Shown: positions 4,848-54,553 of the stretch, piece by piece
How positions within the stretch are numbered: position 1 is the first letter of the stretch
Layout of the letters: each line of letters opens with the position of its first letter
Virus record (IMG/VR): IMGVR_UViG_3300045988_112739
Source: a virus
DNA length: 64,000 nt
Reading direction: 5' to 3' (one strand)
Program-made: the position numbers and the translations under genes
The notes under the pieces: generated by a model
Database searches by the model: none
What the model was told of the DNA's origin: nothing
Seen by the model: only the letters and a program-made list of their open reading frames with translations

Positions 4848-4849
4848 AT

Positions 4850-8711: not shown

Positions 8712-11700
8712 TTACTGCACAGTGGTGATACCATTTTTGTTTTGTATCTTAGTAACAATTTCAGACCAGAAACTTTCAGCGTCAATGTTTTTGTCAAACT
8801 TAAATTCCATATCACCTGTAAAGGTATAGTTGTTTTTAACTTCTCCTGTGTTAGTAACGTTTGTTATCATATTAGTAGTTGGCTTAGTTTCTGCGAAAGA
8901 TGTAGGTTTAAGTATTTCTGCATATTTGTCAAGGCTAGTCGCCAATGTGGTTACAGAAGTGCCTAATGCAGTCATAATAGACTTCCAGTCAAAAGCAAAT
9001 CCGCTTTTCCCATTAGTAGCATAGCCACCAGAAATAAGATTTGCTTTTGCTTTGTTAAGTTCTTTTTGACTTTGAGCGTCCTCAAATCCTAAATTGATGT
9101 CAACCGCTTTACCATAACGACTACGGAAAGCTTGTTGTTCTTTATCACTTAGATTAAGTAAATCTTTAGCACTTAATGTACTAGCATTTACTCCACGATA
9201 TTGTGCAAGCCAACTTAAAGCAGATTTGACATCTCTTTGATTTTGTATTGTTTCAGGAATGTTACTGAAACTCTCTCCGTATTTCTCTAACCATTCTTTA
9301 CTATCTTCTAAATCTTGTTTTCTATTTTCTTCAAGTTGTTGGTCATATTCCTGTTGTGCTTTCTTAATATCTTTCTTATTAGTAGTCCACTCAAATTGAC
9401 CTGTTTCAGCATTGTATTCACGAACACTTCTTTGTGTCTTAGCTTTATTAAGAGCCTCAAGTTTTTCTTGTAAAGCAATTTGTCTTTGTTGAGCTTCATT
9501 CTTTTTATCAAGCAAATCTATCTCTTTATCTAAAGCATCAATTTCAAGCTGTGCCGCTGCAACAATACCGTTGGCAATATCTTCATAGTATTCTACTTGT
9601 TTAGATAGTACAGTAGATATATCGGATAAAGCGTCCTCAACGGAATAAACAGATTTTTCTATAGTATCTACTATACCATCAGCAGTATCTTCTGCTACTT
9701 CCCCTGTTGCTTCTAGCAAGTCTTTTATTGCACTAATAGAATCAACAACCTGTTGACCGCCAATTATTAGAGATGGATTCTTGGCAATTGTTTCATACCA
9801 CGCTGTAGTGTCTAATGTGTTTAAATCAATAAAATCACTTATTGTTAATTTGCCCGTCAATGCTTGCGCTTCCGTTAGCTTATTAAAATTGTTTAGTATT
9901 TCCTCTTTTGCCGCTGTAACTGTAGCAAAATTCTTTAAATCTATATGATACTGTTTGTTGAATTTGTCCACTAATTCTTTATTACCTAAGATGGCGTTTT
10001 TATAAAAATCGCTACTATAGCTTAATTTTTCAATTTGTGCATTTTTGTAATTTGTTTTATCTTGTTCATATAACTCTTTAAATTTAGAAATAAGTTCTTG
10101 TCTAGTCATTTCTTTACGAAGATACCTGTCAATATATTCTGTTATAGCAGGATAAGCGGATTTCATAGAATCGAGAGTATCTAATGTAATTTGACTGCTC
10201 TCTTGTCCTAATTCATGCATTAGACTATAAGCATCTTTCATACGAGATGTTACAACGTCTAATCGAGAATCAAGCTCCTCGTCAAGATTGACGGAGGCTG
10301 TAGAAGACCCTTGGTCAAACTTATTTGCGAACTCTTCGATAATTTTAGGATAATCTTTTAAGTATTCTTGACATTCTTTTAGTATTTCTATATACCAGCT
10401 TGGAGCATTAGACATTGCTCCTCTCAGCTCTGGCTTTAAGTTGTTGTCCTCGTCAAAAAGCTCGGCAAGTTGATATTTTTCGGCATCGGCTCGTGTTTTA
10501 GAATATTTATTTTCTATTGCAGACTTTGCATCAATGTAATTAGTGTAATTTTTCAAATCAATTCCGTATTTGTTTTTAAATTCTTCCACAAAGCTGGAAT
10601 TCTCGTTAAGCCAACTAGAATAATACTCATCTGTTTTCATATACTTCTTTTGCTGATAATCATAAAAATTATCAATATCGTTATTATAGAACTGCTTAAA
10701 TGCTTTTAATAACTCATCGTTATCAATCATACCCAAACGATATTTCTCAACAATAGAAGCCATACCAGAATACTGGTCTACCATACTACTAAGAATATCT
10801 TCGCTTATAGTACTATCTCCATATCCAGCAACTTCCGCTATAAGTTCACCAGCAGATTTTATAGCTGTGACATATTCGTTGGCAGTAGTTTTAACACCAT
10901 CAACAGCATTGCTAACAATCTGTTTTTCAAGTTCTAATAGTTTGTTTTGGTTTGTTATTTCTAATCTTTGTTCATCAGTAATATCTTTTTGTTTTACCAT
11001 TGTGGCATTATTAATATTCAACTGCTCATCTAAGGTGTCTAACATAGACTGTACATAATCGTTACGAACAGCCTCTATTTTTGCAATATTATCCAATCCA
11101 CCCTGAGTAAGATTTGTTATATCTACACCAGCAGTTTTTAACTCAAACAGTTCCTCTATATCAGGAGTTGTCCCCTCTGAAAGAGCTTTTATTGCATTGT
11201 TAAGTTTTTCTATGTTGTCTACTGCGTTAGTAATTTGTTTTGCATCTGTAGGGAATCCGGCAATTAAATCCGTTGCTGTAATCGTTTCGGTTTTTTGATA
11301 AGTATATCCTAATAGTTCAAGGGAATCCACTATTTCAGAGATACTCATATCAATATCGTTTTTGTCTTTTAAACTTTCTCTAATTCCACCAAGTAAATCA
11401 GTAATTTCTTTATCTTGTGTTTGCTTAATATCTGTAGCAAACATACCTTTTATTTTTTCAGACAACCCGCTACTTTCTACTGCTTTATCAATTAGTATAT
11501 TAGCTTGTGCTTTTTGTTGAGATTTTTCAAATTCTTGTCCTGCTTCTGTAATACTTCTGCCAACAAGTTCTGCAATTCTTTCGTTGCTAGTTAATCCTGT
11601 TGCAGTAGATAATGTTTGCAATAAATTATCTGCAACGGTCTTTAAATCATTGTATGCTTTCTCATCAACTTCTCCAGAACCTGCCAAAGTGTTCATTTGA

Positions 11701-13409
11701 GAAGTAATTTCTGTATACTGGTCTAAAACTTCCCTTACAGTTTGACCCGCATAATCTCCCTCTGTAAACGTTTTAGACAACGAGTCTATCGCTATATTTT
11801 TTGCATTGTCAAGTATTTGTTTGTTTTGCTGATATTCAGTATCTTTTTCTATTGCTTTGATTTCTTGTGAAAGCACGTCTCTAAAACTTTGATAGGCTTC
11901 TTGGTTTTCTTTCGTAATTTCTCCACTAGAAATTTTCTCGTCAATAATTGTTAATAATTGTTTCATATTTTCAACAGTTTGAAAATATGATTCTGACCCA
12001 AACATAAGAGCCTCGTTTGCCAAATAGACCTTGCCACCAAATCCGCTAATTTCTGATTGTAAATCATTTATTACATCAAAATATTTTCTGGCAGCACCAC
12101 TGTCTCCAATTTGTGTGACTGCTCCGTGAAGCTTACCAGTGGTAATGTCTCCGTAATTCCAAAAGCCGATGCTCTTTTCGTAGTCAAAAGCCGTTGCTAC
12201 TTCATCGGAAATATCAGTCCACGTTTCACTCGCACGTTGCTGTGAAATTTGTTTAAGTGTAGCCAAAGTTGTTTCAAGTTTGCCATTTACTACATCAATT
12301 CCGTCTGCTTCTGAACCGTAAGTCTCAACTATTTGGTCTCTACTAGTTAATAATTCTTCTGCCTTTTCGTTTTTAAGAGACGTATCAGATATAGAATCAT
12401 ATTCTTTTTTGAGGTTTTTATATTTTTCTATAAGCTCATCTATAGAAGAAGATGTATCATTATAGGTGTTTATGGTTTCAATCGCGTTATCACGAGCCTG
12501 TTCTGCGGCTTGACGAGCACTCATAATGGCTGTCGCTATGCCTGAAATTGCAATAGATACAATTCCCAAAACTAAATTCAACGTTGACATAGCCGTTGTC
12601 AATCCTTGTGTCGTAAATTGCATTGTCTTTTGTTTTGCTATTGCCCCAGCTAAACTTATAGTTTCCTGCTGGTTGAGTTGTATATTATTTTTTTTTGCCA
12701 TTGCAAAAAGTATTGCCGCTATTTTACCTTGCTTTTGACTTTCTGTTAAACTGTTGTTTGATATTATAGCCTGCATATTAGCAGCAGTTTGCGCATCTGT
12801 GTTTAACAACAGTTGTGCTTGTGCAGTTGTCAACCCCATATCAACTAATTTTTGAGCTTTCTTTTCTGCATTTAAAGCCTTGCTGCTTACAATAACTGCA
12901 ATCTGTTGTTTTTCGTACGCACTTAATGTTTCCCCGTTTTTAGAGATTATTGTATCTAATGTAGCCCAGCTACTTTTTAATCCTGTAATTGTTTGTCTTA
13001 AATTTTTTGTAGGAAGGACTACGTTGTTTAACAAACCTTTAAATCCTTTGCTTAAACTAGATACTAACGCAGGTATTCCTTTAAGAGCCTTAAAAGCAAG
13101 AAAAAACCCTAAAACATTTTGCAATACAGGTGCTTTTGCTGATAAAGCATCTAATACACTAAGCATTCCACTCAATAATGAAACTCCAATTTTAATAGTT
13201 CCACTTTGGTTAAGACCCTGTATAAATTGTTCCCATTGTACAGTTAATTCGTTTATTTTAGCTTCAAGGCTACTCATATAGTGAGTATACTTCTGAGCAG
13301 ATGTACCAGAAGCTTCCATTGTTTTGTTTGTATATTCAAGAACTTTGTCGTAGTTCTGCATTACTGCAATAAAGGTATTTCTTTGATGTACCAATTCTGT
13401 TACTTTCAC
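8712..13409 (-). CDS. tape measure protein, exon 3 (1565 codons)
   Basis: Long coiled-coil/TM-segment ORF; in frame with exon 2 after removal of 13410-13681 (…AIAG|VKVTELVHQRNTF…). The track start at 13409 is the first exon codon (GTG), not an initiation codon. Confidence 0.85.
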   Translation of the reverse strand: MKVTELVHQRNTFIAVMQNYDKVLEYTNKTMEASGTSAQKYTHYMSSLEAKINELTVQWEQFIQGLNQSGTIKIGVSLLSGMLSVLDALSAKAPVLQNVLGFFLAFKALKGIPALVSSLSKGFKGLLNNVVLPTKNLRQTITGLKSSWATLDTIISKNGETLSAYEKQQIAVIVSSKALNAEKKAQKLVDMGLTTAQAQLLLNTDAQTAANMQAIISNNSLTESQKQGKIAAILFAMAKKNNIQLNQQETISLAGAIAKQKTMQFTTQGLTTAMSTLNLVLGIVSIAISGIATAIMSARQAAEQARDNAIETINTYNDTSSSIDELIEKYKNLKKEYDSISDTSLKNEKAEELLTSRDQIVETYGSEADGIDVVNGKLETTLATLKQISQQRASETWTDISDEVATAFDYEKSIGFWNYGDITTGKLHGAVTQIGDSGAARKYFDVINDLQSEISGFGGKVYLANEALMFGSESYFQTVENMKQLLTIIDEKISSGEITKENQEAYQSFRDVLSQEIKAIEKDTEYQQNKQILDNAKNIAIDSLSKTFTEGDYAGQTVREVLDQYTEITSQMNTLAGSGEVDEKAYNDLKTVADNLLQTLSTATGLTSNERIAELVGRSITEAGQEFEKSQQKAQANILIDKAVESSGLSEKIKGMFATDIKQTQDKEITDLLGGIRESLKDKNDIDMSISEIVDSLELLGYTYQKTETITATDLIAGFPTDAKQITNAVDNIEKLNNAIKALSEGTTPDIEELFELKTAGVDITNLTQGGLDNIAKIEAVRNDYVQSMLDTLDEQLNINNATMVKQKDITDEQRLEITNQNKLLELEKQIVSNAVDGVKTTANEYVTAIKSAGELIAEVAGYGDSTISEDILSSMVDQYSGMASIVEKYRLGMIDNDELLKAFKQFYNNDIDNFYDYQQKKYMKTDEYYSSWLNENSSFVEEFKNKYGIDLKNYTNYIDAKSAIENKYSKTRADAEKYQLAELFDEDNNLKPELRGAMSNAPSWYIEILKECQEYLKDYPKIIEEFANKFDQGSSTASVNLDEELDSRLDVVTSRMKDAYSLMHELGQESSQITLDTLDSMKSAYPAITEYIDRYLRKEMTRQELISKFKELYEQDKTNYKNAQIEKLSYSSDFYKNAILGNKELVDKFNKQYHIDLKNFATVTAAKEEILNNFNKLTEAQALTGKLTISDFIDLNTLDTTAWYETIAKNPSLIIGGQQVVDSISAIKDLLEATGEVAEDTADGIVDTIEKSVYSVEDALSDISTVLSKQVEYYEDIANGIVAAAQLEIDALDKEIDLLDKKNEAQQRQIALQEKLEALNKAKTQRSVREYNAETGQFEWTTNKKDIKKAQQEYDQQLEENRKQDLEDSKEWLEKYGESFSNIPETIQNQRDVKSALSWLAQYRGVNASTLSAKDLLNLSDKEQQAFRSRYGKAVDINLGFEDAQSQKELNKAKANLISGGYATNGKSGFAFDWKSIMTALGTSVTTLATSLDKYAEILKPTSFAETKPTTNMITNVTNTGEVKNNYTFTGDMEFKFDKNIDAESFWSEIVTKIQNKNGITTVQ

Positions 13410-13681
13410 CTAAAAGGTTACTGACTATGTATTAAACATAGCGGTCGAAGTTCTTCCAAAAGTGTCTTTACACTTGACCTCAACTCTATATATTTCTATA
13501 TAGTTCAGACTGTATTTTCATCTTTACAGATGTTATCCTCTGCGGTCGTTACGATGAGATTATAAATAATCTTTATCTCGGTATTGTCTACAGCATTATC
13601 TGTTTAGAGTTTCACCGATATAGGATAATTCTGATATCTAAAAGATATCCATATATTTCTATATGTTCGGGCATACATTTT
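13410..13681 (-). ncRNA. probable group I intron (compact, divergent core) in tape measure gene
   Basis: P1: exon CGGGU| pairs with GCCCG 10 nt into the insert (U.G at cleavage site); insert ends CCTTTTAG; all frames closed; hairpins CATATAGAAATATATG and CTATATAGAAATATATAG, TAGACAAT and ACATAGTC elements; excision restores one ORF. Confidence 0.6.
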
Positions 13682-14243
13682 ACCCGCTATTGCAGTCGCA
13701 ATTTGTGCCTGTTCTACGGTATCAAATTCATTCCATCTACGCCCAACATCATCTAGAACATCTTCAAGATTTCTAAATTCTGTTGCACTATTTCTAAGAG
13801 TAATATTATAACGTTTAAGAACCTTTTCGGAATCGTTAATAGCTTCTCCCTCGTCATCAATACTCTTACCAGCTTTTACATTCTGCAAACGAGAGAACAT
13901 TGACTTAAATGCCTGACCTACTGTTTCTGCTGACAATCTAGTGGTTTCACTTGCTGTAGTGAGCATACCCACCATTTTATCAAAGCTAACGCCAGCAGCA
14001 CTAGCAAATGAAGCAGAATACTGGAATGCAGTAGCAAGTTCTTCTGTACTTGTTGCCGCAATAAGGTCGGCATTAACAAGTTTATCTACTACTTCTGCCG
14101 CATCGTCTGCTTCTAATTTATATGAGTTTAAAATTGCAGTTAATTTTTCTGTAGCTTCGCTTGATTCCATTGCACCAAGCGTTGCCATCATAGTAGATGC
14201 TTTAAGTAATTTAGCAGTTTCCTCTGCTGTCTTACCCTGTCTC
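13682..14243 (-). CDS. tape measure protein, exon 2 (core of TP901-type tape-measure domain)
   Basis: RQGKTAEETAKLLKASTMMATLGAMESSEATEKLTAILNSY…AFQYSASFASAAGVSF…; track ORF 13604..14191 has an artificial start and a read-through tail (KMYARTYRN…). Confidence 0.85.
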
Positions 14244-14583
14244 CTGTTATATTAACTAGAGTTCGTCACACTCTAATCTTATAGTTTCCTATAAGCATAG
14301 ACTATATCTTCAATCTAAAAAAGATTGTCCCCCACTTCGATTTAAGGGGTTCTCACCCACGCCATATGACGATTGCGCCCTACTTCTATTGTCCACAAGG
14401 ACTTACGAATAGTCGTTGAACCTTTCTCCTAATAGGAGACTTGGTTGCGGATTGTCCAATATTGATACTTTTTACTATACCTTAATAATTAGTTAAGCCA
14501 TTATAATATTGCTATTATAATTTAGTATATCAATCTCTAAGGAGTTTCCCGCAGTTAAAGGGATTTATAATGACCTAATTAAA
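14244..14583 (-). ncRNA. group I self-splicing intron (IA2-like core) in tape measure gene
   Basis: Minus strand: TTAACTGCGGGAAACTCCTTAGAG, GGACAATCCGC, CAACGACTAT (P7) and GAAGATATAGTC (J8/7-P7', as in Tetrahymena AAGAUAUAGUC). P1 is GGCU|U with AGGUC; ends AATATAACAG. Splice gives …GSVEWL|RQGKTAEE…. Confidence 0.9.
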
Positions 14584-17390
14584 AGCCATTCAACAGACCC
14601 AGAACTCACAATTTCTGTTGTAGTTCCAAGTTCTTTTGCAAGTTCAGAATAACTAGCTAAAGTTTTCCTAACACTAGTATCAGTCTGATTAGTTACCATT
14701 TGTACTTCTGTCATGGTCTTATCGAATTCTTTAGTTTTTTCGATAACGTTTGACAAGCCTTGTCTCATTTCCATGAACAGTCTATTAAATATATTAAAAC
14801 TAAAAGCAACAGCCGCAGTACGTTGGAAACTTGCTTTTAATCTTTCTAACAGTGTCAGTTGCTTACTATTACTCTGATTACTACGAGTTACATTATCTGC
14901 CATTTTAGCATTGGCTTCCGCTACCATATTTGTATAAGTTGAAGTTTTAGCTAATGCATCATTGTCTTTAAGTAGTGCATTATACTGCGCTTGTAACCTA
15001 TCAACAACTGCTTGTTGCTGATTTACAGTAGCATCATTATATGCTCTTGCTTTATACTCTTGAAGTGTAGATTGTGCTTTCTTCAAATTAGTATAAGCAG
15101 TAATCATTTTATTAAGGGTTGCCAAATCACTTTCTTGCTTTGCTTTTATAGTATCGTCTTTTATAGTGGCGTTAGCTTCTGCTACTACGGTTCTTAACTT
15201 TTCATATTGTTCTCTTGTAATACCTAAAGTGGCATTGAAACTCTTCAAAGACATTTGTCCACTTGAAAAATCAATTAAATTTCCAAGTCCACTAGTGCCA
15301 ATTATAGCAGACATCTTATCTTGTACATTTTGATAAGCGGCAGTGTATATACCTTTGTCGCCCTTGCCAGCCTTATTAGTAAGTTTGCCTTGTTCTCTGC
15401 GTAATTCTACATATTCTTGCAAAGATTTAGTTGCTTTAGAATAAACTTCGTTTTCTTGCTTTTGACGTTGAATATCTTTTTCTTTACTATTTGCTACTCT
15501 CTGTAATGTCTGATTATATTCAATATAATTGTTTAGTAATTCTCTTACTCTGTTTGTTAATAACTGAGTGTTTTCAGCACTTCTTAATTCTGTATTATAT
15601 TCAGATAGTTTGGCTTGTGCGATTTTTTGATACTCTGTGGCTTCTTCTATATTTCCTTTTTGCATAGCAGAACGAGATTTTTGCCAAGCCTGATACCTTT
15701 CATTTTCTAATCTTGTTAATTTTGTCACTAAGTTTTGCTGTTGTACGTTTGTATCGCTAGACGTAATTCTATTATATGTATCTGTTGGTATGCGACCATT
15801 ATAAGATTCTATCTGAGTATTTACTTGATTAAGCCTGTTCTGTGTAGTTACAAATTTTTGACTACCCGTTGTCTGTCCAGAAAGTCTACTTTCTAATTTA
15901 GCCCTTTCTGATACTAAATTTGTAAGCTCCTGCTCTAATTGAATTTGTTCTCTTATAACGTTATCTTCGTTTGCTCTTGTTTGAATAGCCCGTTGAATGT
16001 TTTGATTACGTTCCTGTAATTGCCGATTAAGAAAAGAAATACTTTCTGGGTCTTCGGCGTTCCCGTAACCGCTAAAAATAGGGTCTCTACCGCCAGCCAC
16101 CCTACCAGCATTTAATGCGCTTTTCTGAATATTGTTTATTTCAAGCTGATATCTTATTTTGTTTTGTAAAAGATTATCTTCGTTGGCTTCTGCCTCGTAT
16201 AATTTTAATTTCAAATCATACTCTTCTGTGAGTAGTGTTTTATATCTTTCTACCTGGCTGACCTCATCCACATACGTTCTGCTCAAACTAGATGTCCCAC
16301 CACGGCTTAACATCATATCATTAAGTGCTTTAGGGTTTACATTTTGTGGCGTTTTCCCAAATTTATTTGTAATTGTCTGTATATCCTCAGGAGATAAAGT
16401 TATATTTGCACTTTCTCGTCCGCTTATTCTTAATCTAGCGTTTGCTTTTACTAAATTGCCTGTATCGTCAAATACGCCAGTAATCTGCCTAAACAAATTG
16501 CTATAGTTTTTTTTAAATTCGTCAAACCTTTTTCTTGCGTTGATAATTGCGGCATCCGCTTTTTGAGACGCATCTGCTGATATTTTTAATCCCTCTGCTG
16601 TATTTCTATTAAATTCAGACAATTTGGCTCTAGGGTCTTTACTTGCTATAGAGGAATTGTCACTTTCCCCATTATTGCCGCCGCCAGACGGTGAATTTGT
16701 AGATGGATTGCCAGCGTTTTGAGCCGCACCACTTAAAGCATTAGCCGCGTTGCTAACCGCTTGTGCCGCAGTATTTAATGTGGTAGAAGCCCCACTTATA
16801 CTTTGGGAAGTGTTTCCTAAATTAGCATTAGCTGTACCTAAAGCAGAAGCACTATTACCTATATTAGTAGCACTAGTATTTAAACTAGAAGAAGCAGAAT
16901 TAAGGTTCTGAACAGTGGTGTTAAGATTATCAACAGTCTGCATTAATGTTTTATTTAGAGCGTCTGCGTTGGTTGATGTACTCTTCTTATCAGCAGGAGT
17001 TGTTTTTGTCTTTTGAGCTGTAATTACTTTTTCCACTTCTTTAGTAATTGTGGCTAGGTCAGAAGACTTATATCCTGTGCCGCCTATCGTAGCTCTTCCA
17101 GCTTTTGTGTTATAAGTAAACTTTAGACTTTGGTCTGTAATCTGCCTATTGATATCCGTAACGAATTCTGCAAAGTTCTGATAGTCTTTCTTAGATTGTT
17201 CAATCGCCTTTTGTATTGGTTCTCTAAACAGACTTTCTCCTATATTTTTAGTTCCAGAATATTTATTTAAAGCATCAAAAAGCTTCATAATATCATTAGG
17301 AAACTTTGATACTAAATTCTGAAATTGCTGTTCAAATGTACTTGTATCTAATCCTAATTGAACCTTGGCAATTTCTATTTTTTCTGCCAT
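14584..17390 (-). CDS. tape measure protein, exon 1
   Basis: 935 codons of coiled coil plus Ser/Asn/Ala-rich repeats ending …ELAKELGTTTEIVSSGSVEWL, the start of the conserved tape-measure domain. Track tail LIRSL is intron read-through. Confidence 0.8.
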
Positions 17391-22758: not shown

Positions 22759-23105
22759 CTTGGTATTTATATGTATTCGCTAAATACATACCATACAACA
22801 AATGTATGCTCATGCTTTCACATGAGAGTAGGTCATATCACAGACTTATTAAAAGTCTTTCCCCATTTCACAGTCGCTTGACTGTTACGCACCGCCGTGC
22901 TGACCGTCGAACCTTACTTGAATAATTTATTCAAGTCTTGGCGGCTGATTGTCCATTATTACAGTACTTAGGCTTGCACCATATACTATCCACATTATTC
23001 TTTCTACTTTCGTCACATTCACGCTTGTTAATTAAAACTACGTTGTAGTTAATGTGGCTCTTAGGAGTTTCCAGCCATTAAAGGAATTTTTCGATACTTT
23101 TCACA
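22759..23105 (-). ncRNA. group I intron B in tail tube gene
   Basis: Minus strand: AAATTCCTTTAATGGCTGGAAACTCCTAAGAG, GGACAATCAGCC, TTCGACGGTCA (P7) with GTGATATGACC (J8/7-P7'), long P9 hairpins, ends …ATATAAATACCAAG(G). 5' splice site is not canonical (no U.G found), so 5' boundary is +/- a few nt. Confidence 0.7.
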
Positions 23106-23117
23106 AAGTAAAGGGAA
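23106..23117 (-). CDS. tail tube gene, putative micro-exon (about 12-13 nt, TTCCCTTTACTT)
   Basis: Left between the homology-defined 3' end of intron A (…AATATAACG) and the start of intron B; 12 nt keeps frame (…VYPTG-FPLL-DVYIGGG…). Confidence 0.4.
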
Positions 23118-23505
23118 CGTTATATTATTCCTGCACCCAATATCTTCCAATAGGTCGTTAATCTATTGCGTTTTTAAAACAGCTCTATATTTCTATAGAC
23201 GTTGAGACTATATCTTCATACATTTTATGTATGCACTCCATTTCGATTTAAAGGGTTCTCACCTACGCACTTGCGCCCTACTCTTATTGCAATTAACCCA
23301 TTGCTAAAAAAGATAGTCGTTGAACCTTTCTCCTAATAGGAGACTTGGTTGCGGATTATCCAATACCAATACTTATTACCATACCTTAGTAGTTAATTAA
23401 GCCATTACTATATTACTATAATAACTTGGTATATTGGTCTCTAAGGAGTTTCCCGCAATTAAAAGTGTTTTCAAATACCAATCAGTATTTGGAGCAGTAT
23501 TATTT
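23118..23505 (-). ncRNA. group I intron A in tail tube gene (paralogue of tape-measure intron 14244-14583)
   Basis: TTAATTGCGGGAAACTCCTTAGAG, GATAATCCGC, GAAGATATAGTC. A 45-nt block (23313-23357) is identical to 14409-14453. P1 is GGGU| with GCUC; ends GAATAATATAACG. Confidence 0.9.
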
Positions 23506-23655
23506 ACCCGTGGGATATACCATTTCCATTGTATTTTCAAGAGAAGTTGTCTTACAGTTAGTAAGATATGCAATAATGCTCTTGTCAACAGGCTTTCTTA
23601 AAAGAATCTCAAATGCCTGCTGCATAGAGAACTGTTTAGGTGTAGCTAAAGCCAT
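23506..23655 (-). CDS. major tail (tube) protein-like, exon 1 (50 codons)
   Basis: GGAG RBS, ATG 23655; MALATPKQFSMQQAFEILLRKPVDKSIIAYLTNCKTTSLENTMEMVYPTG then stop 2 codons into the intron. Confidence 0.65.
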
Positions 23656-25182: not shown

Positions 25183-26438
25183 TATACTAACCCTCCTAAT
25201 TCTATTTCAAATTCAGTTATTCTAGTATCACTTGTATCACTAACACAAGACACTATTAATCTTTCATCGCTAGGTCTTAAATTAAGCACAGTGAAATGGT
25301 TGCCATCGACATCACTAATTTTGTAATATCTGCTATTCGCACCACTAAAAGTAAATGTGAATACAGCATTTGTGGCAACATTATTTACATATTCATAAAC
25401 GCCAAACGTTTGTCTCGCATTCAACTTAACGAACCTAGAGATAGGACTAATTACTATTTTAGAAACCATAGGTAACACATTAGAAACTTTGACTTGTACT
25501 GCCGAGGTCACATCAGGTTTATTTACCATTGTGGCTATGAAGCCACACTCGCCTAATTTCAACAGTTTAAATTCGCCTGTATATGGGTCTATTTCGGCGA
25601 CACTAGGAGACGTACTCTCCCAAATTACTTCCTCGTCAGTTTCTTCTCCGTCAAGTAAAACTCGTGCGTTTAATTTTCCTGTGAAACCTATAACATTTTC
25701 TATATTACCAGTAGGAATAATAGCAGTATAATTATGTTCAACATAATTAGCTATTCCTAAGTCAAACCTGTCATCGTCAGATATATTGTCAAGGTCAATA
25801 TAAAAATTTATAATCTTTTGAGACTCAGAATTAAATGTCTCTCTTAAATCATAATCTCCACGACTACGAATTTTATAAACACTAGACCCGAATATAAATC
25901 TATTATTTATAGAAACCCTGTCGCTGTAAACATTGTCTTGACAAAAAACTTGCAGTCTACTATTAGCTACTTCCATTTCTGTACTTCTCTGCAACTGTGT
26001 TTCATTAATCTTATAATCAATCACACACGGTTCTTTATGAATGTTTCCATATTTATCCTCTGTATTTATAGTGTTATTACAACGCCTTACATAAACACTA
26101 GAAGTTGCAGTAAGTATATTTTCCAAAGAGTAAACTATCCAAATATTGTTTTCAAACCTATATCTTGTACCCAATTCAGGACAATGTTTAATGTCTGGAA
26201 ATATAATTTTACGATAATCGTCATTAACCCTTTGTCCAGTAGTAGCATCTATAAGAGTTGTAACTCTACATATAATGGGTTTAAATTCTAATGTACCAAA
26301 AGCAATTTCTTCTTCTATACCATTTTTCTGGTATGTAGAAGAATTGGTAAAAGTTTTATCAATTAATGCTTGCATGGCATCGTGCCATCTGTCATACGGT
26401 TCGGGAGTGTTGCTTATAAACGTATCATAATATTTCAT
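25182..26438 (-). CDS. structural protein with C-terminal Big_2-like Ig domains
   Basis: …VIWESTSPSVAEIDPYTGEFKLLKLGECGFIATMVNKPDVTSAVQVKV… matches the bacterial Ig-like group 2 pattern. Confidence 0.45.
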   Translation of the reverse strand: MKYYDTFISNTPEPYDRWHDAMQALIDKTFTNSSTYQKNGIEEEIAFGTLEFKPIICRVTTLIDATTGQRVNDDYRKIIFPDIKHCPELGTRYRFENNIWIVYSLENILTATSSVYVRRCNNTINTEDKYGNIHKEPCVIDYKINETQLQRSTEMEVANSRLQVFCQDNVYSDRVSINNRFIFGSSVYKIRSRGDYDLRETFNSESQKIINFYIDLDNISDDDRFDLGIANYVEHNYTAIIPTGNIENVIGFTGKLNARVLLDGEETDEEVIWESTSPSVAEIDPYTGEFKLLKLGECGFIATMVNKPDVTSAVQVKVSNVLPMVSKIVISPISRFVKLNARQTFGVYEYVNNVATNAVFTFTFSGANSRYYKISDVDGNHFTVLNLRPSDERLIVSCVSDTSDTRITEFEIELGGLV

Positions 26439-26752
26439 ATGTTTCTCCCTTTCTTAACAGCATCAATGCAATAGAATATATTAGACTTCATTTCTTTATG
26501 ATTGATTGTTGATAAATTTTCATTTATCCCGTTTAGTGTACTCACAAGAGAAATGAAGTTTTCAGCTTCTATTAAGTCATTAAACCCTTGAAATTCAAGA
26601 ATTAAATGCTCAATATATGTAGATAACTGCTCATAGTTATCTGTAGACTTTTCATATATTTTTAAGCATGCGAATATTTTTCCAATAATTTTATTAAAAT
26701 AACTATCTATTTCTTCTTCGCTCAAATTTTTAAAATAATCCTTACAAACCAT
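26435..26752 (-). CDS. hypothetical protein
   Basis: Start moved to ATG 26752 (MVCKDYFKNL…), which overlaps the stop of the spliced upstream gene (ATGGTTTGTAA). Confidence 0.5.
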   Translation of the reverse strand: MVCKDYFKNLSEEEIDSYFNKIIGKIFACLKIYEKSTDNYEQLSTYIEHLILEFQGFNDLIEAENFISLVSTLNGINENLSTINHKEMKSNIFYCIDAVKKGRNI

Positions 26753-26898
26753 AGTCACCCACCGCCCACTGTTTGAAATTAGTGTTTGCGAGACCATAAT
26801 CTGTCATATCCTGAGAAGCTATTTCTCTTAGCTTATCTGCATATTCTCTTTTCTCTTTAAGGTTTTTCTCTTCGGAATAATGCTTAAACTTTTCATTA
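26742..26898 (-). CDS. head-tail region protein, exon 2
   Basis: …NEKFKHYSEEKNLKEKREYADKLREIASQDMTDYGLANTNFKQWAVGDYGL*; only open frame downstream of the intron. Exon lengths 347+157=504 nt keep frame. Confidence 0.65.
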
Positions 26899-27189
26899 CT
26901 TTTATATTTAGCTTATCATATAAAAGACCGTTTGGTTTTCTCATAATTTCTTATGAGCATAGACTATATCTTTACCCTGTTACGGGTATTCCCCACTTCG
27001 GAACGCTTGTTCCTAACGGTATCTCAACCGATAGTCGTTGAGGGTTTTCCTTTTCGGAACTTCCCTGCTGATTGTCCAATCTTATAACTTTTCAAACATT
27101 TACATATAAGCGTATTTCATCTTTCTGCTTTAGTATATAAGCTCTAAGGAGTTTCCAGCATTTCAAGGAATTTATGTATAAACTTCCGT
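26899..27189 (-). ncRNA. group I intron in head-tail region gene
   Basis: AAATTCCTTGAAATGCTGGAAACTCCTTAGAG, GGACAATCAGC, CAACGACTAT (P7), AAAGATATAGTC (J8/7-P7'). P1 is UGUAUAAU| with GUUUAUACA; ends AAATATAAAAG. Confidence 0.85.
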
Positions 27190-27536
27190 ATTATACAAGA
27201 CTTTAAACAACGTTGTGTTCTCAAATCATTATCGTTAAGATTTAATTCCATTTGTACAATATCATTGATATTGTATTCTACCCAAGAAATAACCATAAGT
27301 TCAGAGAGAATATTCTTCTCTTTAATACTAAGAGTAAAATTAAACTCTTTTGAGGTAGTATCTACATCTTCTATATTAGGACAATTATGGAATTTGGCTA
27401 TAGCCTTTATAAGAAATGTCTCTAGTAAATCTTCACCAAGTTCAAAATTTTCCTTAAATAAATTCTTTAAGTGATAATCCTGTATAGAGTTTAAAAATAT
27501 GTGATAAATCTCACTAAATTCTGTATTAGCACTCAC
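27190..27536 (-). CDS. head-tail region protein, exon 1
   Basis: Track ORF 27144..27536; tail RKFIHKFLEMLETP is intron read-through. Confidence 0.65.
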
Positions 27537-46458: not shown

Positions 46459-46534
46459 TGGAGCTGATATCAGGAATCGAACCCGAAACATTCTGATTAC
46501 AAAACAGATACTCTGCCTATTGAGTTATATCAGC
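46459..46534 (-). tRNA. tRNA-Thr (anticodon UGU), CCA encoded
   Basis: Hand-folded cloverleaf. Acceptor GCTGATA/TATCAGC, D stem ACTC/GAGT, anticodon arm TCTGT-TTTGTAA-TCAGA (31-39 U-U mismatch), T arm TCGGG-TTCGATT-CCTGA. Confidence 0.85.
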
Positions 46535-46804: not shown

Positions 46805-46892
46805 TGGTGAGAGGAGTAGGAGTCGAACCTACGGTGTTTCTAACGTACTTGATTTACAGTCAAGCGTCTTCACCAACTAGACATATCCTCCC
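46805..46892 (-). tRNA. tRNA-Tyr (anticodon GUA), long variable arm, CCA encoded
   Basis: Acceptor GGGAGGA/TCCTCTC, anticodon arm CTTGA-CTGTAAA-TCAAG, variable arm TACGTTAGAAACACCGTA, T arm GTAGG-TTCGACT-CCTAC. Confidence 0.85.
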
Positions 46893-48445: not shown

Positions 48446-49678
48446 TCAAAGTCTATCAGCGATTTCAGCTATCTTACTTCTCCAAACGTTCTGTAAATCG
48501 ACATATCCAAAAACTTCTTCCCCAGCAAAAGTTTCTACAACTCTTCTGAGACCGTTATTGCTTTCATATGTCTGACTATCAGTCTGCTTGAAGTCGCCCT
48601 CTATAAATACTTTTGCACCAGAACTTACTCTGGACAAACAAATTTTTATTAAATCTGTAGTGGTATTCTCTGCTTCTGTAATCCAAAGCATTTCGTTATC
48701 AGTAATCTCCATACCACGACAATCTGCCATAGGTACAAGTTTTATTTTACCGCTACTAATATAGTTGTCTACAATATATCTATCACCAAACTTAGTAATA
48801 AGAATATTGCCTATATTAGACTGCATAGCTTTTTCAACAACAGAACCAGTATAATAACCAAGTTCAGAAGCCCCCCTAACAGGACAAGGGTTAAACAGTA
48901 TTACTAACCTTTCATACTTTCCTGTCTCTATTAAGTGCATAGCTATCATAAGGCTAAGAAGGCTCTTACCACTACCAGCCTTACCCGTGATACAAGTAAT
49001 TGTATTATTCATAAGGCTATCAATAGCCATTCGTTGGTATACATCTTTGGCTTTCATCTTATCGCCAAAGAACATGGTTTTTATATTTTTACTTGCGACA
49101 GTAGAATATTTTTCTCCATCCCACTTAACCATATCACAATAATCTCCGTTGGAGTTATTTATAATAAGATATTGGTTAGCAAGACAACCAAAAATATTCT
49201 CGTTAGGATTTTCATATATAGAAGCCATTTCCTCGTCGGTAGCATTTACGGTGTCATAGCCTAAATACTTCTTTTCAGAAATACACTCCAATGTTGATAT
49301 ACCTAATATTTCTGCTTTAATCTTAACATTGAAATCATATGTCAAAATACTAGCAGAGTTTCTACAAGCACAGGTTACAATGATATCATCGTTCATTGTG
49401 TTTAAGCAATAAGTTTCCGGCGACTGTTTAATCTTCTCAGAAATATCTTTATTGAAATCAAACGTAATGTTCGATTTGTTTCTCTCTATTGCTTTAATAG
49501 CCTGTCTTGCCTGCCTAGCTTTAGAATAATCTTTATTAGTTTTGAGATTATCAAGTTCCTCAATAGTAGCAATATTGAATATAACCTGATAATTTTCTTT
49601 CAGTAGATTGTCAATAACACTGTTATCATTCATAACAGCACAGGTATCTACTACAACTTTCCGCTTGTTATCGTCCAT
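48446..49678 (-). CDS. PIN-domain + PhoH-like ATPase (YlaK-type)
   Basis: N-terminal VVVDTCAVMND (PIN acidic motif); Walker A ITGKAGSGKS; PhoH-like C-terminal region. Confidence 0.75.
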   Translation of the reverse strand: MDDNKRKVVVDTCAVMNDNSVIDNLLKENYQVIFNIATIEELDNLKTNKDYSKARQARQAIKAIERNKSNITFDFNKDISEKIKQSPETYCLNTMNDDIIVTCACRNSASILTYDFNVKIKAEILGISTLECISEKKYLGYDTVNATDEEMASIYENPNENIFGCLANQYLIINNSNGDYCDMVKWDGEKYSTVASKNIKTMFFGDKMKAKDVYQRMAIDSLMNNTITCITGKAGSGKSLLSLMIAMHLIETGKYERLVILFNPCPVRGASELGYYTGSVVEKAMQSNIGNILITKFGDRYIVDNYISSGKIKLVPMADCRGMEITDNEMLWITEAENTTTDLIKICLSRVSSGAKVFIEGDFKQTDSQTYESNNGLRRVVETFAGEEVFGYVDLQNVWRSKIAEIADRL

Positions 49679-50016: not shown

Positions 50017-50718
50017 TCACTTACAACTAGCACAGAATTTCTGACTATTACTCTTCTTGGGAACTACCAATCCACATTTTTGACAGGTCATATAACCATT
50101 AGGATTAAAATATCTAAAATACTGATAATTCAAATTTCTATAATCAGTAATCTTTAATGCTGTATCATCACCTTGTAATATCTTATCCGTAAACGAATAC
50201 ATCACCTTTGTAGCAACTGCACCTCTAGGCTTACTAACGCATAAAGTAAGCAATCCTAAATCATAAAGGCTATCTATCATAGAGTTGAAATCTGTTCCCG
50301 ACCAAGACAATCCTGCAAGCCTAAATACTTCTCGTTCGTTTATATAAAAACGATTATTGTCATTGAACTTAAACAAACACAGCATAACGAAAGCAAATAC
50401 TTGCAAGCTCTTAGTACTAAGAGATGAAATTGTTTTCAATTCATATTCACTAAAGGATAATTCTCTGCGTTTAAGTTCCGGATTGTTCTTAGCCATAGAA
50501 ATCATAATATTTATCTTGGCTTGCTTAACCTCGTAATTACCGCCACTATCAAGAATAATAAGTTTTCTACAGAGTTTAGAATAGACTTCCTTTTCATCTA
50601 AACCCTGAGAAAAGTATAATTTTGCAAGAACAATTCCTTTTTTTATTATGTTATAGGTTGTATCTATTTCTTGATTATTAAGTTCTAAAGCATAATTATA
50701 TTCATCAAAAACAATCAT
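50017..50718 (-). CDS. hypothetical protein with C-terminal zinc ribbon, translationally coupled to the polymerase gene
   Basis: ATGA overlap with polymerase stop; …CQKCGLVVPKKSNSQKFCASCK. Confidence 0.55.
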   Translation of the reverse strand: MIVFDEYNYALELNNQEIDTTYNIIKKGIVLAKLYFSQGLDEKEVYSKLCRKLIILDSGGNYEVKQAKINIMISMAKNNPELKRRELSFSEYELKTISSLSTKSLQVFAFVMLCLFKFNDNNRFYINEREVFRLAGLSWSGTDFNSMIDSLYDLGLLTLCVSKPRGAVATKVMYSFTDKILQGDDTALKITDYRNLNYQYFRYFNPNGYMTCQKCGLVVPKKSNSQKFCASCK

Positions 50719-51611
50719 ATTAAGTTCACTTCCTTTATCGAATATCTCTTGCCTAAGTAATCTACGCCGTTTTCATCAAATATAGGATACTCTACTTTAG
50801 TGGCTTTAGATTTTAAGTTTTCTACAACTATATCTCCAAATGTTTCCCAAATAAAAATCTTGGATTTTGTACTAAAATATCTATAATAAATATCTATAAC
50901 ATAATCGCAAGTCTTTCTGGCATCTGAACAAATAGATGTAATCTTGTTTTCGTATTCCTCGATAAGCGTTGTTATCTCTTGTGCATAACACTCTATGTCA
51001 TCTGTAGGAGTAAACATAATATCTGTTTCGACAGATTTTCTTTCTGCAATTATTCCAGCGTGACGTTTATGGAATTCTTTTATAATTGCTTTTAATTGAT
51101 TGTATAATTCTTTATCGTCTAAGTCATAATTACCAGACATAAGGACTTTATAATCAAAAGGTTGTCCTTGTTTTTTCCACTTGTTGTCAAATTCTGTATC
51201 TTCTACATACTCTGCAAGTATATTCATAATACATCTATTTTTAAGCAAAGGAGAAAATCTATTGTATTGATATAAGAACTTGCTTTCTTCGGAAGTCTTA
51301 TTTTTCTTTCGCATAAGTTCCGTAAGGTCACACTTAAACATAACTCTACAAAGCTGTTTGTAGTTTCTTTTACTAACATTGTAGTGTGTCATTATTTTAG
51401 GATAAACATATCCAAAGAAATATGGTTTTTTATCTGCGCAAATTCTATTGTTAAACGCAATTTCTTGATTTTTAAGAATTGCAGCTCTTTTTTCTTCTTC
51501 TGGCATATCTTCTGTTATTGAAACGTACTTTTGCTTTTTATTCCAGTATTTAGGAGGTGGCACAAAGACATCACCTTTGGCACTATCAATTGCCGTAAAA
51601 CTCCACACTTT
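50715..51611 (-). CDS. DPBB RNA polymerase (YonO/RdRP-like), exon 4
   Basis: Track ORF 50715..51614. In-frame 3' splice candidates after G at 51621, 51612 or 51603, so the 5' boundary is uncertain by about 9 nt either way. Confidence 0.7.
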   Translation of the reverse strand, partial: KVWSFTAIDSAKGDVFVPPPKYWNKKQKYVSITEDMPEEEKRAAILKNQEIAFNNRICADKKPYFFGYVYPKIMTHYNVSKRNYKQLCRVMFKCDLTELMRKKNKTSEESKFLYQYNRFSPLLKNRCIMNILAEYVEDTEFDNKWKKQGQPFDYKVLMSGNYDLDDKELYNQLKAIIKEFHKRHAGIIAERKSVETDIMFTPTDDIECYAQEITTLIEEYENKITSICSDARKTCDYVIDIYYRYFSTKSKIFIWETFGDIVVENLKSKATKVEYPIFDENGVDYLGKRYSIKEVNLI

Positions 51612-51937
51612 CATGTGGTACAGACTATATCTTCATCTTTCTCTATTGAGTTAAGATGTTCGGCACTTCCACTAAATGAATTTCACATTTAGTGTACCAA
51701 ATTCATAGGCATATCACTTGGACTTAGCCCGTGTTTTGTAGTCGTTTGACTTTCAAAATCGTTTCTGATTAAGCTTAGCACAGGATTGTCATATCAAAAA
51801 AAAGATTTAGACTTCCCTGTTAGCATGGCTATTATCTATCATTTCCTATAGATACTAAACGTTAGCCATACACCCTAGATTTCTAGGTTCACCGAATTTT
51901 TAGCTATATATTTCTATATAGCGGTAGCAACAAATCT
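51612..51937 (-). ncRNA. group I intron X3 in RNA polymerase gene
   Basis: P1 is GGUAGU| with GCUACC (6 bp incl. U.G). P2 is GCTATATAGAAATATATAGC. Core elements: 24-nt block GGTGAACCTAGAAATCTAGGGTGT, GCTAACAGGGAAG / GACAATCCTGTGC (P4), AAACGACTAC (P7), GAAGATATAGTC. Confidence 0.9.
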
Positions 51938-52213
51938 ACTACCTTGGTAAAAACGAAGTAAAGATATACGTTTTTTTATTTCTTTGTATTCATTACTATC
52001 TTCTGGATAATTAGCTAACATAGCTATAAGACTAGAAGCTATATTAGTAATAAATCCTATTTTAGTATTGAAACTTTTGGTGTCCATTGTGGCAAAGTTA
52101 TTTGCACTTATTCTTTGTTCTTTTGCTTTTTTCTTTTCGTAAGTTATTGTTGGCTGATTGTCAATTACTGCATTGACTACATACTTATTGTCTGTAACTA
52201 AAAATAAATCTCC
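51938..52213 (-). CDS. DPBB RNA polymerase, exon 3 (92 codons)
   Basis: GDLFLVTDNKYVVNAVIDNQPTITYEKKKAKEQRISANNFATMDTKSF…RISLLRFYQGS; only open frame between introns; length divisible by 3. Confidence 0.8.
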
Positions 52214-52559
52214 CTTTTATACCCTGACTTTCGCCATACTTTAACGCTGATTTAACAGCGGGAATAGACTATATCTTCATCTATTTTCATAGATGTGTGG
52301 CACTTCGATTTAAGAGGATTTCACTCACTGAGAATTTCACTCAGCCCTACTTCTATTGTTCTTTTTAGGATAGAACTAAAGAATAGTCGTTTAACGATTT
52401 TGTTCGCACAGGATTGTCATGTCATAAGATTTAGATTTCCCCTGTTAGCATATCTTCTATTTACCATTTCCTGTAAATCCTAACGTAAGACATACACCCT
52501 AGATTTCTAGGTTCACCACAATATCATATATCATTGCTGAATATATGAGACTAAATTCA
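52214..52559 (-). ncRNA. group I intron X2 in RNA polymerase gene
   Basis: Same 24-nt block (52494-52517). Core elements: GCTAACAGGGGAA / GACAATCCTGTGC, AAACGACTAT, GAAGATATAGTC, P9 hairpin CGCTGTTAAATCAGCG. Ends AGGGTATAAAAG. P1 is only GAU| with GUC. Confidence 0.9.
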
Positions 52560-52565
52560 ATCGTA
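52560..52565 (-). CDS. DPBB RNA polymerase, 6-nt micro-exon TACGAT (Tyr-Asp) or duplication scar
   Basis: Lies between the terminal G of X1 (52566) and the first nt of X2 (52559). In frame; yields D-A-D-Y-D-G-D. Confidence 0.55.
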
Positions 52566-52864
52566 CATTTATACCCCAATTTTCATTGTACTTTAACGCT
52601 GATTTAACAGCGGGATTTGACTATCTCTTTATCTGCTGTTGCAGATATGTGGCACTACGGAATAATGAATTTCACATTAAACCTCTTGAACTCTCGTTCG
52701 TTTAGTCGATACACCTTTCCTTTGTTAAGGACTTGGCACGATATCATCATGTATAATAAATTATATTTAGACTTTCATCGTTAGCCAGCTTGAAGCTGAC
52801 ACCCTAGATTTCTAGGTTCACCACATTCTTAACCAATATTACTATTGGCTCGGACTGACATTTT
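52566..52864 (-). ncRNA. group I intron X1 in RNA polymerase gene
   Basis: P1 is CGGAU| with GUCCG. P2 is CCAATAGTAATATTGG. Core elements: 24-nt block (52799-52822), TATCGACTAAAC (P7), AGAGATAGTC, P9 hairpin CGCTGTTAAATCAGCG. Ends GGGGTATAAATG. Confidence 0.9.
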
Positions 52865-54553
52865 ATCCGCATCGGAGGCGTTTATCGCTTCCATTCCCCA
52901 TATGTTAAGTATATTACCACTATAAATATACTTAAACCACTCTTTACACTCGTCTGAATGATTTATAAAACATTTTTGATTTTCTGAAAAGTCTACTAAA
53001 GGAGACCGCATAAGTGCAACTACATTCGTTCCTTTATCAACCCATCTTTTATTCCAACATTCTCTTTTTCCAAGCAAACCATGAACTTCCATACCTAATG
53101 CGTGTTCGCATAAAGCATAAAGGTCTGGGATAGAAAAGTCATAGCTTCCCTCTACCAAAAGCTTACCAATTTTAGTTTGTCTTACTTTCTTTTCTAGCAT
53201 AAGATTAATTTTATTTCTTATATAGCTGTCGTTAAGTATTGCATCATTATACATTAGTGCTTTTGCAATAGAAGAATCTTGATTTTTTTCAATCGAAGTG
53301 TATTCATCGTCTTCGTCATGGCTTCCTAAAAGAAACAACATGGAATAAAGTTTATCTCCAGTCATTATCTTTTTTATCCAATCTAATGAAAAATCTGCTA
53401 ACTGTTTTATACTTTCCTCTGTAAATTTATTGGACTGGACATATTGATAATTCATAGGAGTGTAAATGTTGTTTTGCTTTTTAGTTACTCTTGCTACACC
53501 AAAGATATGATTGAACTTTTGGTGATAGTACATATACTGTTGCCAATTCTCATATTTCTTTGCCATTTTAAATTGACTTTTAGTAAGTATGACATCAATA
53601 TCATCAATGTTATACTCCACACCCCAAAGGTCTGTAATGACTTCTTTGTGTGCAACTTCTTTTGCAAATTTATGAAAATCAAATATTGATACAAGTCCTT
53701 TTATCCAGCAAGACCTAAGGATAAACGAAGCAGGAAGATAATCTAATTTCAAATCTTCTTGCCAAAGTTTAGCCATTTCGGGACTAATCATTCCTGCACC
53801 ATCAAAGGCGTTGATTTCGAAATCCATTATTTTATCTTGAACATCTTTTTCACCTTTAGGATTATCATAAATCCATTTTATATTCTGGTCTTTTAATGTG
53901 TATTCAAAATCATTAACTACACATATTCTGGGTTTTCTAACCTGTCTTGTCGCACTAGTATAGAGTGCGAAGTATGCGCTGAACTTGGCGAGGTTAATTT
54001 TACCTATACTCTGTCTTGTCAAACCACACATCATTGTTCGTTCTAGCAAATTATGAATACTAGAATCGACAAATATCGCAGAGTTTCTTCTCAACTGTCC
54101 TGCTCCTGCGCATAAACGGATATAGTGTGTAGTTACAGCTTTACCTCCTAAATCTACCGTAACTGTAAATCCATTTTTGCAAAGGTCTTTGTAATCTTTT
54201 TTAGTGGTGTCTACTTTTACTGATACTATTTCTGGAACAAACAGTAAATTTTCGATTTCCTTTTGTATCTCTAAAATTTCATTTGAATGTTCGTTACTTT
54301 CATTTAATTGCTTTAAGTGATTTCTTTTAGAATACAAATTTTGAATGTATTCTTTTTCGAATGGTCTTTCTTGAATTTGTCGTATAAATCTAAGAAGTTG
54401 ATTGTCTCCTAAAGCAACCATCATACCCAGCTCTTTTGCAGAACGCAAGGTAAATCTCATAGATTTATCATTGCTCATGATATATGATGTGTTTATCTTT
54501 AGGACATTAAACAAATCCATTTTAGCCAATTTATCAGTCCTTTCAATAGACAT
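52865..54553 (-). CDS. DPBB RNA polymerase (YonO/RdRP-like), exon 1 (563 codons)
   Basis: Ends …VVALMRSPLVDFSENQ…WGMEAINASDAD. Track tail KMSVRANSNIG is intron read-through. Compare eukaryotic RDR …NPCLHPGD…SGSDLDGDLYFV… (recollection). Confidence 0.7.

Follow-up and report, generated by a model that had tools for sequence, protein, structure and literature searches.

The catalytic motif of a gut phage RNA polymerase gene is described here in which three aspartate codons are separated from one another by group I introns. The gene lies on the minus strand (54553-50715) of a 64,000-nucleotide stretch of viral DNA, the IMG/VR virus record IMGVR_UViG_3300045988_112739, which is referred to below in its full length as the window. 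It is a YonO-like polymerase gene with three paralogous group I introns, denoted X1, X2 and X3. We consider it very probable that all three are group I introns, that X1 and X2, members of two mobile-intron lineages, lie within the catalytic motif, and that their removal restores the sequence D563-Y-D565-G-D567. The three catalytic aspartates sit on three separate exons, as follows from the boundaries seen in natural alleles together with the invariance of D563, D565 and D567 in homologues. The gene is arranged as follows.

52865-54553, minus strand: exon 1, 563 codons; its last codon, GAT, encodes D563, the first catalytic aspartate.
52566-52864, minus strand: intron X1, 299 nucleotides (nt), group I (IA-like, with P7.1/P7.2), without an open reading frame (ORF).
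52560-52565, minus strand: exon 2, the micro-exon TACGAT, encoding Y564-D565; D565 is the second catalytic aspartate.
52214-52559, minus strand: intron X2, 346 nt, a paralogue of X1, without an ORF.
51938-52213, minus strand: exon 3, 92 codons, GDLFLVTDN...LLRFYQGS; its second codon, GAT, encodes D567, the third catalytic aspartate.
51594-51937, minus strand: intron X3, 344 nt, the third paralogue, inserted between YQGS and AID; terminal G at 51594.
50715-51593, minus strand: exon 4, 292 codons and a stop, beginning AIDSAKGDVFVPPPKYW.

Joining 54553-52865, 52565-52560, 52213-51938 and 51593-50715 gives an open frame of 949 amino acids, and the frame is exact across all three junctions. As it stands in the DNA, the first ORF (52829-54553, minus strand) has 574 amino acids, ending ...WGMEAINASDAD and then running on as the read-through KMSVRANSNIG to a stop. 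Exon 1 closes with GAT GCG GAT (last nucleotide 52865), X1 ends ...GGGGTATAAATG at 52566, X2 ends AGGGTATAAAAG at 52214, and exon 3 opens with GGA GAT TTA TTT. A preliminary description of this region had reported the end of the ORF from 54553 with its read-through, these intron ends with TACGAT at 52565-52560 between them, the opening of the next exon, a P1 helix (CGGAU/GUCCG) with a U.G pair at the cleavage site of X1, and a 24-nt block and a P9 hairpin common to X1 and a paralogous X2. On reading the minus strand from 51800 to 53000, all of its sequence statements were found to be correct to the base, and the hairpin, CCCGCTGTTAAATCAGCG, is indeed the same sequence in X1 and X2. The 24-nt block, GGTGAACCTAGAAATCTAGGGTGT, is present in three exact copies, at 52799-52822, 52494-52517 and 51870-51893 (0.00 expected from 100 shuffles). 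It was the third copy that revealed X3 (51937-51594), which had been overlooked in that description.

The strongest evidence for the boundaries comes from the comparison of natural alleles in related loci (numbered L001 onwards). In L005-L007 (99% amino acid identity) the motif reads TCC GAT GCG GAT TA(T/C) GAT, followed by X2 and then by GGA GAT TTA; X2 is the only intron in these alleles. X1 is exactly absent, with L007 reading GAT TAC GAT across the exon 1/micro-exon junction, and X3 is likewise absent, its site reading CAA GGG AGT GCT ATC GAC. Altogether X2 occurs alone in L005-L008. The reciprocal state is seen in L009-L011 (78% identity), where GAT GCG GAT is followed by X1 and then by TAT GAC GGG GAC CTC TTC, and X2 is absent. 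In L021 and L022 (55% identity) the motif is uninterrupted and consists of the same DNA, GAT GCG GAT TAC GAT GGA GAC. When 52864-52566 and 52559-52214 are taken out of the window, real, continuous coding sequences therefore result, and the predicted boundaries of all the introns are fixed by natural alleles. That each intron is found alone in relatives, at the boundaries proposed beforehand, supports the earlier reading of two separate group I introns with a two-codon micro-exon between them.

The predicted gene product is a 949-amino acid YonO-like single-chain two-barrel RNA polymerase of the YonO/QDE-1 type. Exon 1 alone matches the Pfam family PF05183 (RdRP, QDE-1 family) with 47.2 bits over residues 115-467. 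With the spliced protein the match rises to 57.5 bits, against a cut-off of 23.8, and extends over residues 115-669, thereby crossing the catalytic motif and the third (X3) junction; the polymerase similarity expected of the spliced protein around the motif was thus found. In tblastn searches exon 1 matched yonO of SPbeta with 28.9% identity (71% of the query covered, E 7e-33); phages of Bacillus, Clostridium and Enterocloster also gave homologues. A megablast search of the gene against GenBank phages gave no match and a profile search of PDB sequences gave no solved relative; useful relatives were obtained through tblastn and through protein and contig look-ups. With the spliced protein as query, 1092 relatives were returned. 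Among full-length homologues without interruption, the 10 closest (53-60% identity) read SDADYDGD(L/I), or in variants SDADFDGD and SDSDYDGD, in support of the proposed product SDAD-YD-GDLFLVTDN. At the X3 site the same homologues read LLR(F/Y)(Y/F)QG(S/T)(A/E)ID, e.g. YQGSAID, YQGTAID and YQGSEID. D563, D565 and D567 are invariant in an alignment of 12 sequences, and the proposal that the D-Y-D-G-D triad is spread over three exons of a polymerase of this type is likewise supported. The D-x-D-G-D triad is present only once X1 and X2 have both been removed, so the active site is formed only if both are excised exactly. YonO itself is an experimentally proven DNA-dependent RNA polymerase in which the aspartate triad is essential, the 3D>3N mutant being inactive (PMC5467207).

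The need for the two codons of the micro-exon can be measured against a profile built from 11 homologues, with the window left out. The product with YD scores 1488.5 bits and the product without YD 1474.9, i.e. 13.6 lower. L004, a 98-kb IMG/VR contig with approximately 94% DNA identity, shares the X1-TACGAT-X2 layout and has substitutions of its own. The exons of the window and L004 show 168 nucleotide differences in 165 codons, which lead to only 13 amino acid changes. About 92% of the codon differences are synonymous, and this holds for every exon, including exons 3 and 4 downstream of the introns. Purifying selection acts on all exons, and the small number of amino acid changes indicates that the gene is in use and that the introns must be excised precisely.

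The three insertions have the hallmarks of group I introns, namely a P1 helix with a U.G pair, a terminal G and a covarying P3-P9 core, and on these features we assign them to that class. The elements recognised in each are as follows.

X1, minus strand: P1, exon CGGAU 52869-52865 with guide GUCCG 52855-52851, 9-nt loop, U.G at the junction.
X1, minus strand: P3, 52825-52819 with 52654-52648; conserved hairpin 52816-52803.
X1, minus strand: P4, ACGAU/AUCGU, 52781-52777 with 52742-52738.
X1, minus strand: P7, GACUA (within 52708-52703) with UAGUC (within 52629-52619).
X1, minus strand: P8, 52646-52631; P9 hairpins 52614-52597 and 52588-52577; terminal G 52566.
X2, minus strand: P1, exon GAU with guide GUC 52551-52549, and two intron-side pairs.
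X2, minus strand: P3, 52520-52514 with 52302-52296; conserved hairpin 52511-52498.
X2, minus strand: P4, ACAGG/CCUGU, 52445-52441 with 52412-52408.
X2, minus strand: P7, within 52389-52384 and 52277-52267.
X2, minus strand: P8, 52294-52279; P9 hairpins 52262-52245 and 52236-52225; terminal G 52214.
X3, minus strand: P1, GGUAGU/GCUACC, guide 51928-51923.

Splice sites were surveyed in 15 related introns, one of which (the X2 intron of L008) is cut off by the end of its contig. The 5' exon ends in U in all 15, and each of the 14 whose 3' end is complete has a terminal G. Exon and guide covary across relatives (CGGAU/GUCCG, GGAU/GUCC, GGAGAU/GUCUCC, GACGCU/GGCGUC, GACGGU/GCCGUC), as do the two strands of P3 with one another (UGUGGUG/UGCCACA, UUCGGUG/UGCCGAA, CUUGGUG/CGCCAAG, UGUAGUG/UGCUACA). 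J8/7-P7 reads AAGA(G/U/A)AUAGUC in most of the 15, with variants in the X2-site intron of L020 and in Clostridium phage c-st. RNAalifold applied to five X1-type introns gave P2, P3, P4, P5, P6, P7.1, P7.2, P8 and P9, with compensatory changes in 39 of 77 pairs; for five X2/X3-type introns compensatory changes were seen in 21 of 61 pairs. P7 is a pseudoknot and was assigned by eye rather than predicted. P7.1 and P7.2 between P7 and the 3' strand of P3 are the IA arrangement. P8 and both P9 hairpins have changed on both strands between the window and L004, in X1 as well as in X2, and such compensatory changes between the window and related phages bear out the group I nature that had been proposed for the two introns.

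Rfam model RF00028 matched X1 with 36.4 bits, X2 with 43.6 and X3 with 46.1 (whole-window E 1.2e-5, 8.4e-8 and 1.5e-8, respectively), and the alignments are full-length on the model and on the correct strand. The covariance-model check envisaged in the preliminary description thus gave matches on both of its inserts, at scores below the gathering score of 50. Several observations weigh against our interpretation and should be set out together. X3 also falls below the gathering score, as do relatives in the same intron subfamily, and RF00028 at its gathering threshold, which misses X1-X3 and these relatives, is not usable alone. A conserved, covarying hairpin (CCUAG-AAAU-CUAGG, followed by GUGU) is found between the 5' strand of P3 and GCUAAC-P4 and is outside the standard group I and Rfam consensus; this extra hairpin probably explains the low scores. 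A convincing P10 pairing was sought for X1 and X2 and was not found. P1 of X1 has five pairs (-4.9 kcal/mol); that of X2 contacts only three exon bases (GAU). The P3 and P7 strands of X1 are identical to those of X2, and mispairing between the two introns could occur. Finally, what we count as established is where the introns begin and end, the homology, that the RNA structure is conserved and that the YD codons are needed; we infer the splicing of X1, X2 and X3 itself, its self- or protein-assisted mode, its order and its efficiency.

In the splicing model that we favour, each ribozyme would fold independently on the pre-mRNA. The X1 guide GUCCG would hold the end of exon 1 (CGGAU), and the X2 guide GUC would hold GAU, the three final bases of the micro-exon, in a helix lengthened by two intron-side pairs. 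Guanosine-initiated transesterification would take place at each junction between U and the following nucleotide, and exon ligation after each terminal G would join exon 1, TACGAT and exon 3 to give D563-Y-D565-G-D567. X3 would be excised likewise. The predicted joins are 52865 to 52565, 52560 to 52213 and 51938 to 51593, so that the junction containing the micro-exon would read GATGCGGAT-TACGAT-GGAGATTTA and the X3 junction CAAGGTAGT-GCAATTGAT; exon skipping would be recognised by GATGCGGAT-GGAGATTTA. Pairing of the X2 guide with the adjacent GAU is calculated at -1.7 kcal/mol, versus +0.7 kcal/mol with the distant GGAU of exon 1, and since the proximal P1 is 2.4 kcal/mol better than the distal one, inclusion of the micro-exon would be favoured.

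Skipping is nevertheless conceivable, especially because the P3 and P7 strands of the two introns are identical. It is unlikely, in our estimation, that inclusion of the 6-nt exon is variable and that some transcripts skip it, giving a polymerase that lacks Y564-D565 and reads D-A-D-G-D. If this were true, the isoform might be active, altered or dominant-negative, and the phage would have ribozyme-level alternative splicing of the active site of its own RNA polymerase. The preliminary description had raised the removal of the whole 651 nt (X1, TACGAT and X2) as one unit, to leave SDAD joined to GDLF and hence still D-A-D-G-D; this would amount to full exon skipping or a tandem twintron. The X2 guide GUCU can form four pairs with the terminal GGAU of exon 1, and the shared P3 and P7 strands also speak for such an outcome. 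There are also precedents, in that exon skipping between similar group I introns is described for Twort orf142 (PMC10136302), and tandem IA modules in Ophiostoma cox3 splice as one unit (PMC12308204). Against this, the uninterrupted homologues retain all eight residues of SDADYDGD with D565 invariant, each intron is found alone with TA[CT]GA[TC] as exon, the micro-exon is conserved in L004, and both the homologue profile and the energy of the distal P1 disfavour the shorter product. As the main outcome we regard composite removal as very unlikely. Nor does the locus fit the definition of a twintron, in which the sequence between the modules is dispensable and the modules behave as one intron. 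The accompanying suggestion that TACGAT is the scar of a target-site duplication was rejected, the hexamer being native exon sequence in both single-intron and intron-less alleles. Group I insertion creates no duplications.

A different explanation would be that the gene is dead or dying, with not all three introns still able to splice, and that the phage manages without the polymerase or with fragments of it. Loss of the endonuclease ORFs from all three introns, sub-threshold Rfam scores and the annotation of the phage c-st homologue as separate N- and C-terminal proteins could all be read in this way. The fragments cannot form the catalytic triad, however, and the predominance of synonymous differences from L004 in every exon, the compensatory changes in the intron helices and the exact frame over all three junctions make decay of the gene highly improbable. 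That the tandem layout is an artefact of assembly or duplication of repeated intron sequence might be suspected from the exact repeats of up to 27 nt common to X1, X2 and X3. The same 1351-nt region is, however, found with 0 mismatches on three contigs from different samples and assemblers, an exact copy of the read-through ORF is present on at least eight contigs, L004 shows the layout with substitutions of its own, and three other double-intron layouts occur in related genes; an artefact is almost certainly not the explanation. Excision of X1, X2 and X3 as three separate introns, with retention of the micro-exon, remains the interpretation that we adopt.

The history of the introns can be approached through their distribution. 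Presence/absence polymorphism is seen at fixed sites, X1 and X3 being absent in L005-L007 and X2 in L009-L011. None of the three has an ORF in the window. Elsewhere, X2-site introns (in L001, L008 and L020) encode proteins with the Pfam domains HNH_3 and NUMOD4, and the X1-site intron of L080 encodes a NUMOD3 protein (Pfam). X1-site introns in L009, L025 and L085 have similar ORFs with an N-terminal motif that is GIY-YIG-like by eye; the L009 ORF gave no Pfam match. In L004, X3 is the same intron carrying an ORF with GIY-YIG and NUMOD3. From the different endonuclease types at the X1 and X2 sites in relatives, X1 and X2 are taken to be two mobile-intron lineages with different endonucleases on a common ribozyme scaffold. 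The window copies look like ORF-less derivatives, and the window allele would combine both lineages after loss of their ORFs. Two independent lineages would thus have landed in the S-D-A-D-Y-D-G-D codons, X1 after D563 and X2 after D565.

Insertion into this motif is not confined to the window. Among related loci there are five insertion sites within S560-D567 (seven codons), all of which follow a codon ending in U, and among the homologues the truncated N-terminal ORFs break off at differing points of the motif. Of 80 viral contigs surveyed, 10 had one or more introns in the motif. The sites are listed below with the loci in which they are occupied.

Between D561 and A562: L092 and L094.
Between A562 and D563: L028/L029.
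Between D563 and Y564 (the X1 site): L025, L080, L083, L085/86 and L091, down to 31-34% protein identity.
Between D565 and G566 (the X2 site): L001, c-st, L020 and L093.
Between G566 and D567: L095, L028/29 and L094.

There are four double-intron layouts including that of the window, with micro-exons of 6, 11/12, 12 and 15 nt, and the 6 nt of the window are the shortest. The other three are as follows.

L028 2357-2925 and L029 6648-7217: 12-nt exon GACTTTGACGGT (DFDG), flanking introns of 47.5 and 59.9 bits.
L094 5142-5702: 15-nt exon GCAGATTTTGACGGT (ADFDG).
L093 5164/5169-5658: 11- or 12-nt exon (G)CAGATTATGAT (ADYD).

For the first intron of L093 the reading frame and the terminal-G rule conflict, and no consistent boundaries were obtained. 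It is conceivable, though we think it unlikely, that the motif is a battleground, in which an intron at one site protects against the endonucleases of introns at neighbouring sites; if this is true, the double-occupancy alleles are cases of failed protection.

Further observations concern the choice of codons and the X3 site. A group I intron needs a U at its 5' splice site, and this U is gone where aspartate is encoded by GAC instead of GAT. In 60 uninterrupted loci (L002, L013-L104) GAC is used at D565 and D567 in 45-47%, versus 25% for other aspartates in the same genes, and at D563 in only 5%; these counts are uncorrected for relatedness and are a hint only. The X3 site is a second hot spot, with introns of L020, L021, L025 and L028/29 at or near it (approximate tblastn junctions, residues 655-660), and L092 has an intron 5 nt beyond it.

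Other group-I-like elements are found in the window, which has in all at least eight such hits in its 64 kb, each on the minus strand. No more than 46 nt separates two of them (22809-23136 and 23183-23531, minus strand; 33.9 and 73.2 bits), which lie in a gene that starts near 23655 and encodes a virion structural protein; this pair may flank another very short exon. The tape measure protein gene (8712-17390, minus strand) is split into three ORF pieces, with group-I-like elements between them at 14278-14620 (73.8 bits) and 13486-13691 (38 bits). The top-scoring group I intron of the window (26940-27218, minus strand; 83 bits) lies between ORFs 27144-27536 and 26435-26797, which belong to PHROG families of unknown function. 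A PIN-PhoH fusion gene (48446-49678, minus strand) is found just downstream of the polymerase, and the gene order polymerase, 233-amino acid ORF, PIN-PhoH, ClpP is kept in related contigs. There are two transfer RNA (tRNA) genes at 46462-46534 and 46808-46892 (minus strand).

Comparable arrangements have been described in other systems. In Twort orf142 two similar IA introns (introns 2 and 3) flank a 23-nt exon, and skipping was seen by reverse transcription polymerase chain reaction (RT-PCR) (Landthaler & Shub 1999; as recounted in PMC10136302). The same question of inclusion versus skipping arises here. The exon in the window is 6 nt, in contrast to 23 nt, and encodes a catalytic aspartate, and splicing and skipping were demonstrated in Twort by RT-PCR whereas our locus is known from its sequence alone. 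Engineered tandem Tetrahymena introns showed skipping as well: there the upstream junction was used again by the downstream intron, serving it as a distal 5' splice site (PMC10136302). According to the same source, the 23S ribosomal RNA (rRNA) of Coxiella burnetii has two group I introns 34 nt apart; unlike the present case, these are in an rRNA gene, belong to different subgroups and flank a 34-nt exon (PMC10136302). A close parallel is the placozoan mitochondrial cox1 gene, in which a micro-exon arose through a second group I intron inserting beside a resident one and is required to restore a conserved codon of the catalytic site; it differs in being in an organelle genome, with a 1-nt exon between group IB introns, support from RNA sequencing and no polymorphic single-intron alleles reported (PMC5436844). 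Head-to-tail group I modules with a few to 18 nt between them occur in Ophiostoma ips cox3-640 and cob-201, the latter having IB modules 18 nt apart, and fungal tandem modules span spacings of 0-18 nt (PMC12308204). The ambiguity is the same there, between a composite unit and two introns with a short exon; these introns are fungal mitochondrial and cox3-640 splices as a unit (PMC12308204), whereas the 6 nt of the window are coding and conserved, and relatives have either module alone.

Introns in phage polymerase genes are also known. In the virion RNA polymerase beta-subunit gene of PhiPA3 a group I intron with the HNH endonuclease gp210 follows directly after conserved aspartates, which illustrates why such motifs are targeted; this is a subunit of a multisubunit enzyme, with a single intron that has retained its endonuclease, and the aspartates are not those of the metal-binding DxDGD triad (PMC11620839). 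In 201phi2-1 a beta-like subunit is likewise split by a mobile intron (PMC2919709), and introns and inteins generally favour conserved motifs (PMC2814812). In Clostridium phage c-st (L003; AP008983) a gene of the same family has an intron exactly at the X2 position (317 nt, 4642-4958, between ..GMDMD and GDAVISTNNE). CST179 and CST177, annotated as 'YonO homolog N-ter only / C-ter only', are one gene, and CST178 is its middle piece. In contrast to the window there is one intron in the motif, it is not recognised as an intron in the record, and identity is 30%. The literature search found no report of introns in YonO-like genes, and the YonO paper and a review of two-barrel RNA polymerases do not mention them. 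The earlier statement that no such case had been described for a polymerase active site was too strong, tandem short-exon introns and an intron at RNA polymerase aspartates having been published. Within the literature searched, three things seem to be new: a phage gene with a 6-nt exon, three catalytic aspartates distributed over three exons, and a hot spot of five sites with recurrent micro-exons.

Elements of this kind are known, and the locus is an extreme case of the habit of mobile introns rather than a new element type. It shows how densely group I introns can crowd one active-site motif under purifying selection. With a 6-nt exon, three exon bases for the downstream guide and two near-identical adjacent ribozyme cores, it is a natural substrate on which to ask how small an exon can be for group I splicing and how tandem ribozymes escape misfolding and exon skipping. 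Because of its five sites in seven codons and four double-intron layouts, the YonO-like catalytic motif is a good system for studying competition between homing-endonuclease and intron lineages over one target. Gene callers give truncated or split polymerases at such loci, as in phage c-st, and since a two-codon exon is invisible to them, many phage RNA polymerases in metagenomes would be mis-annotated.

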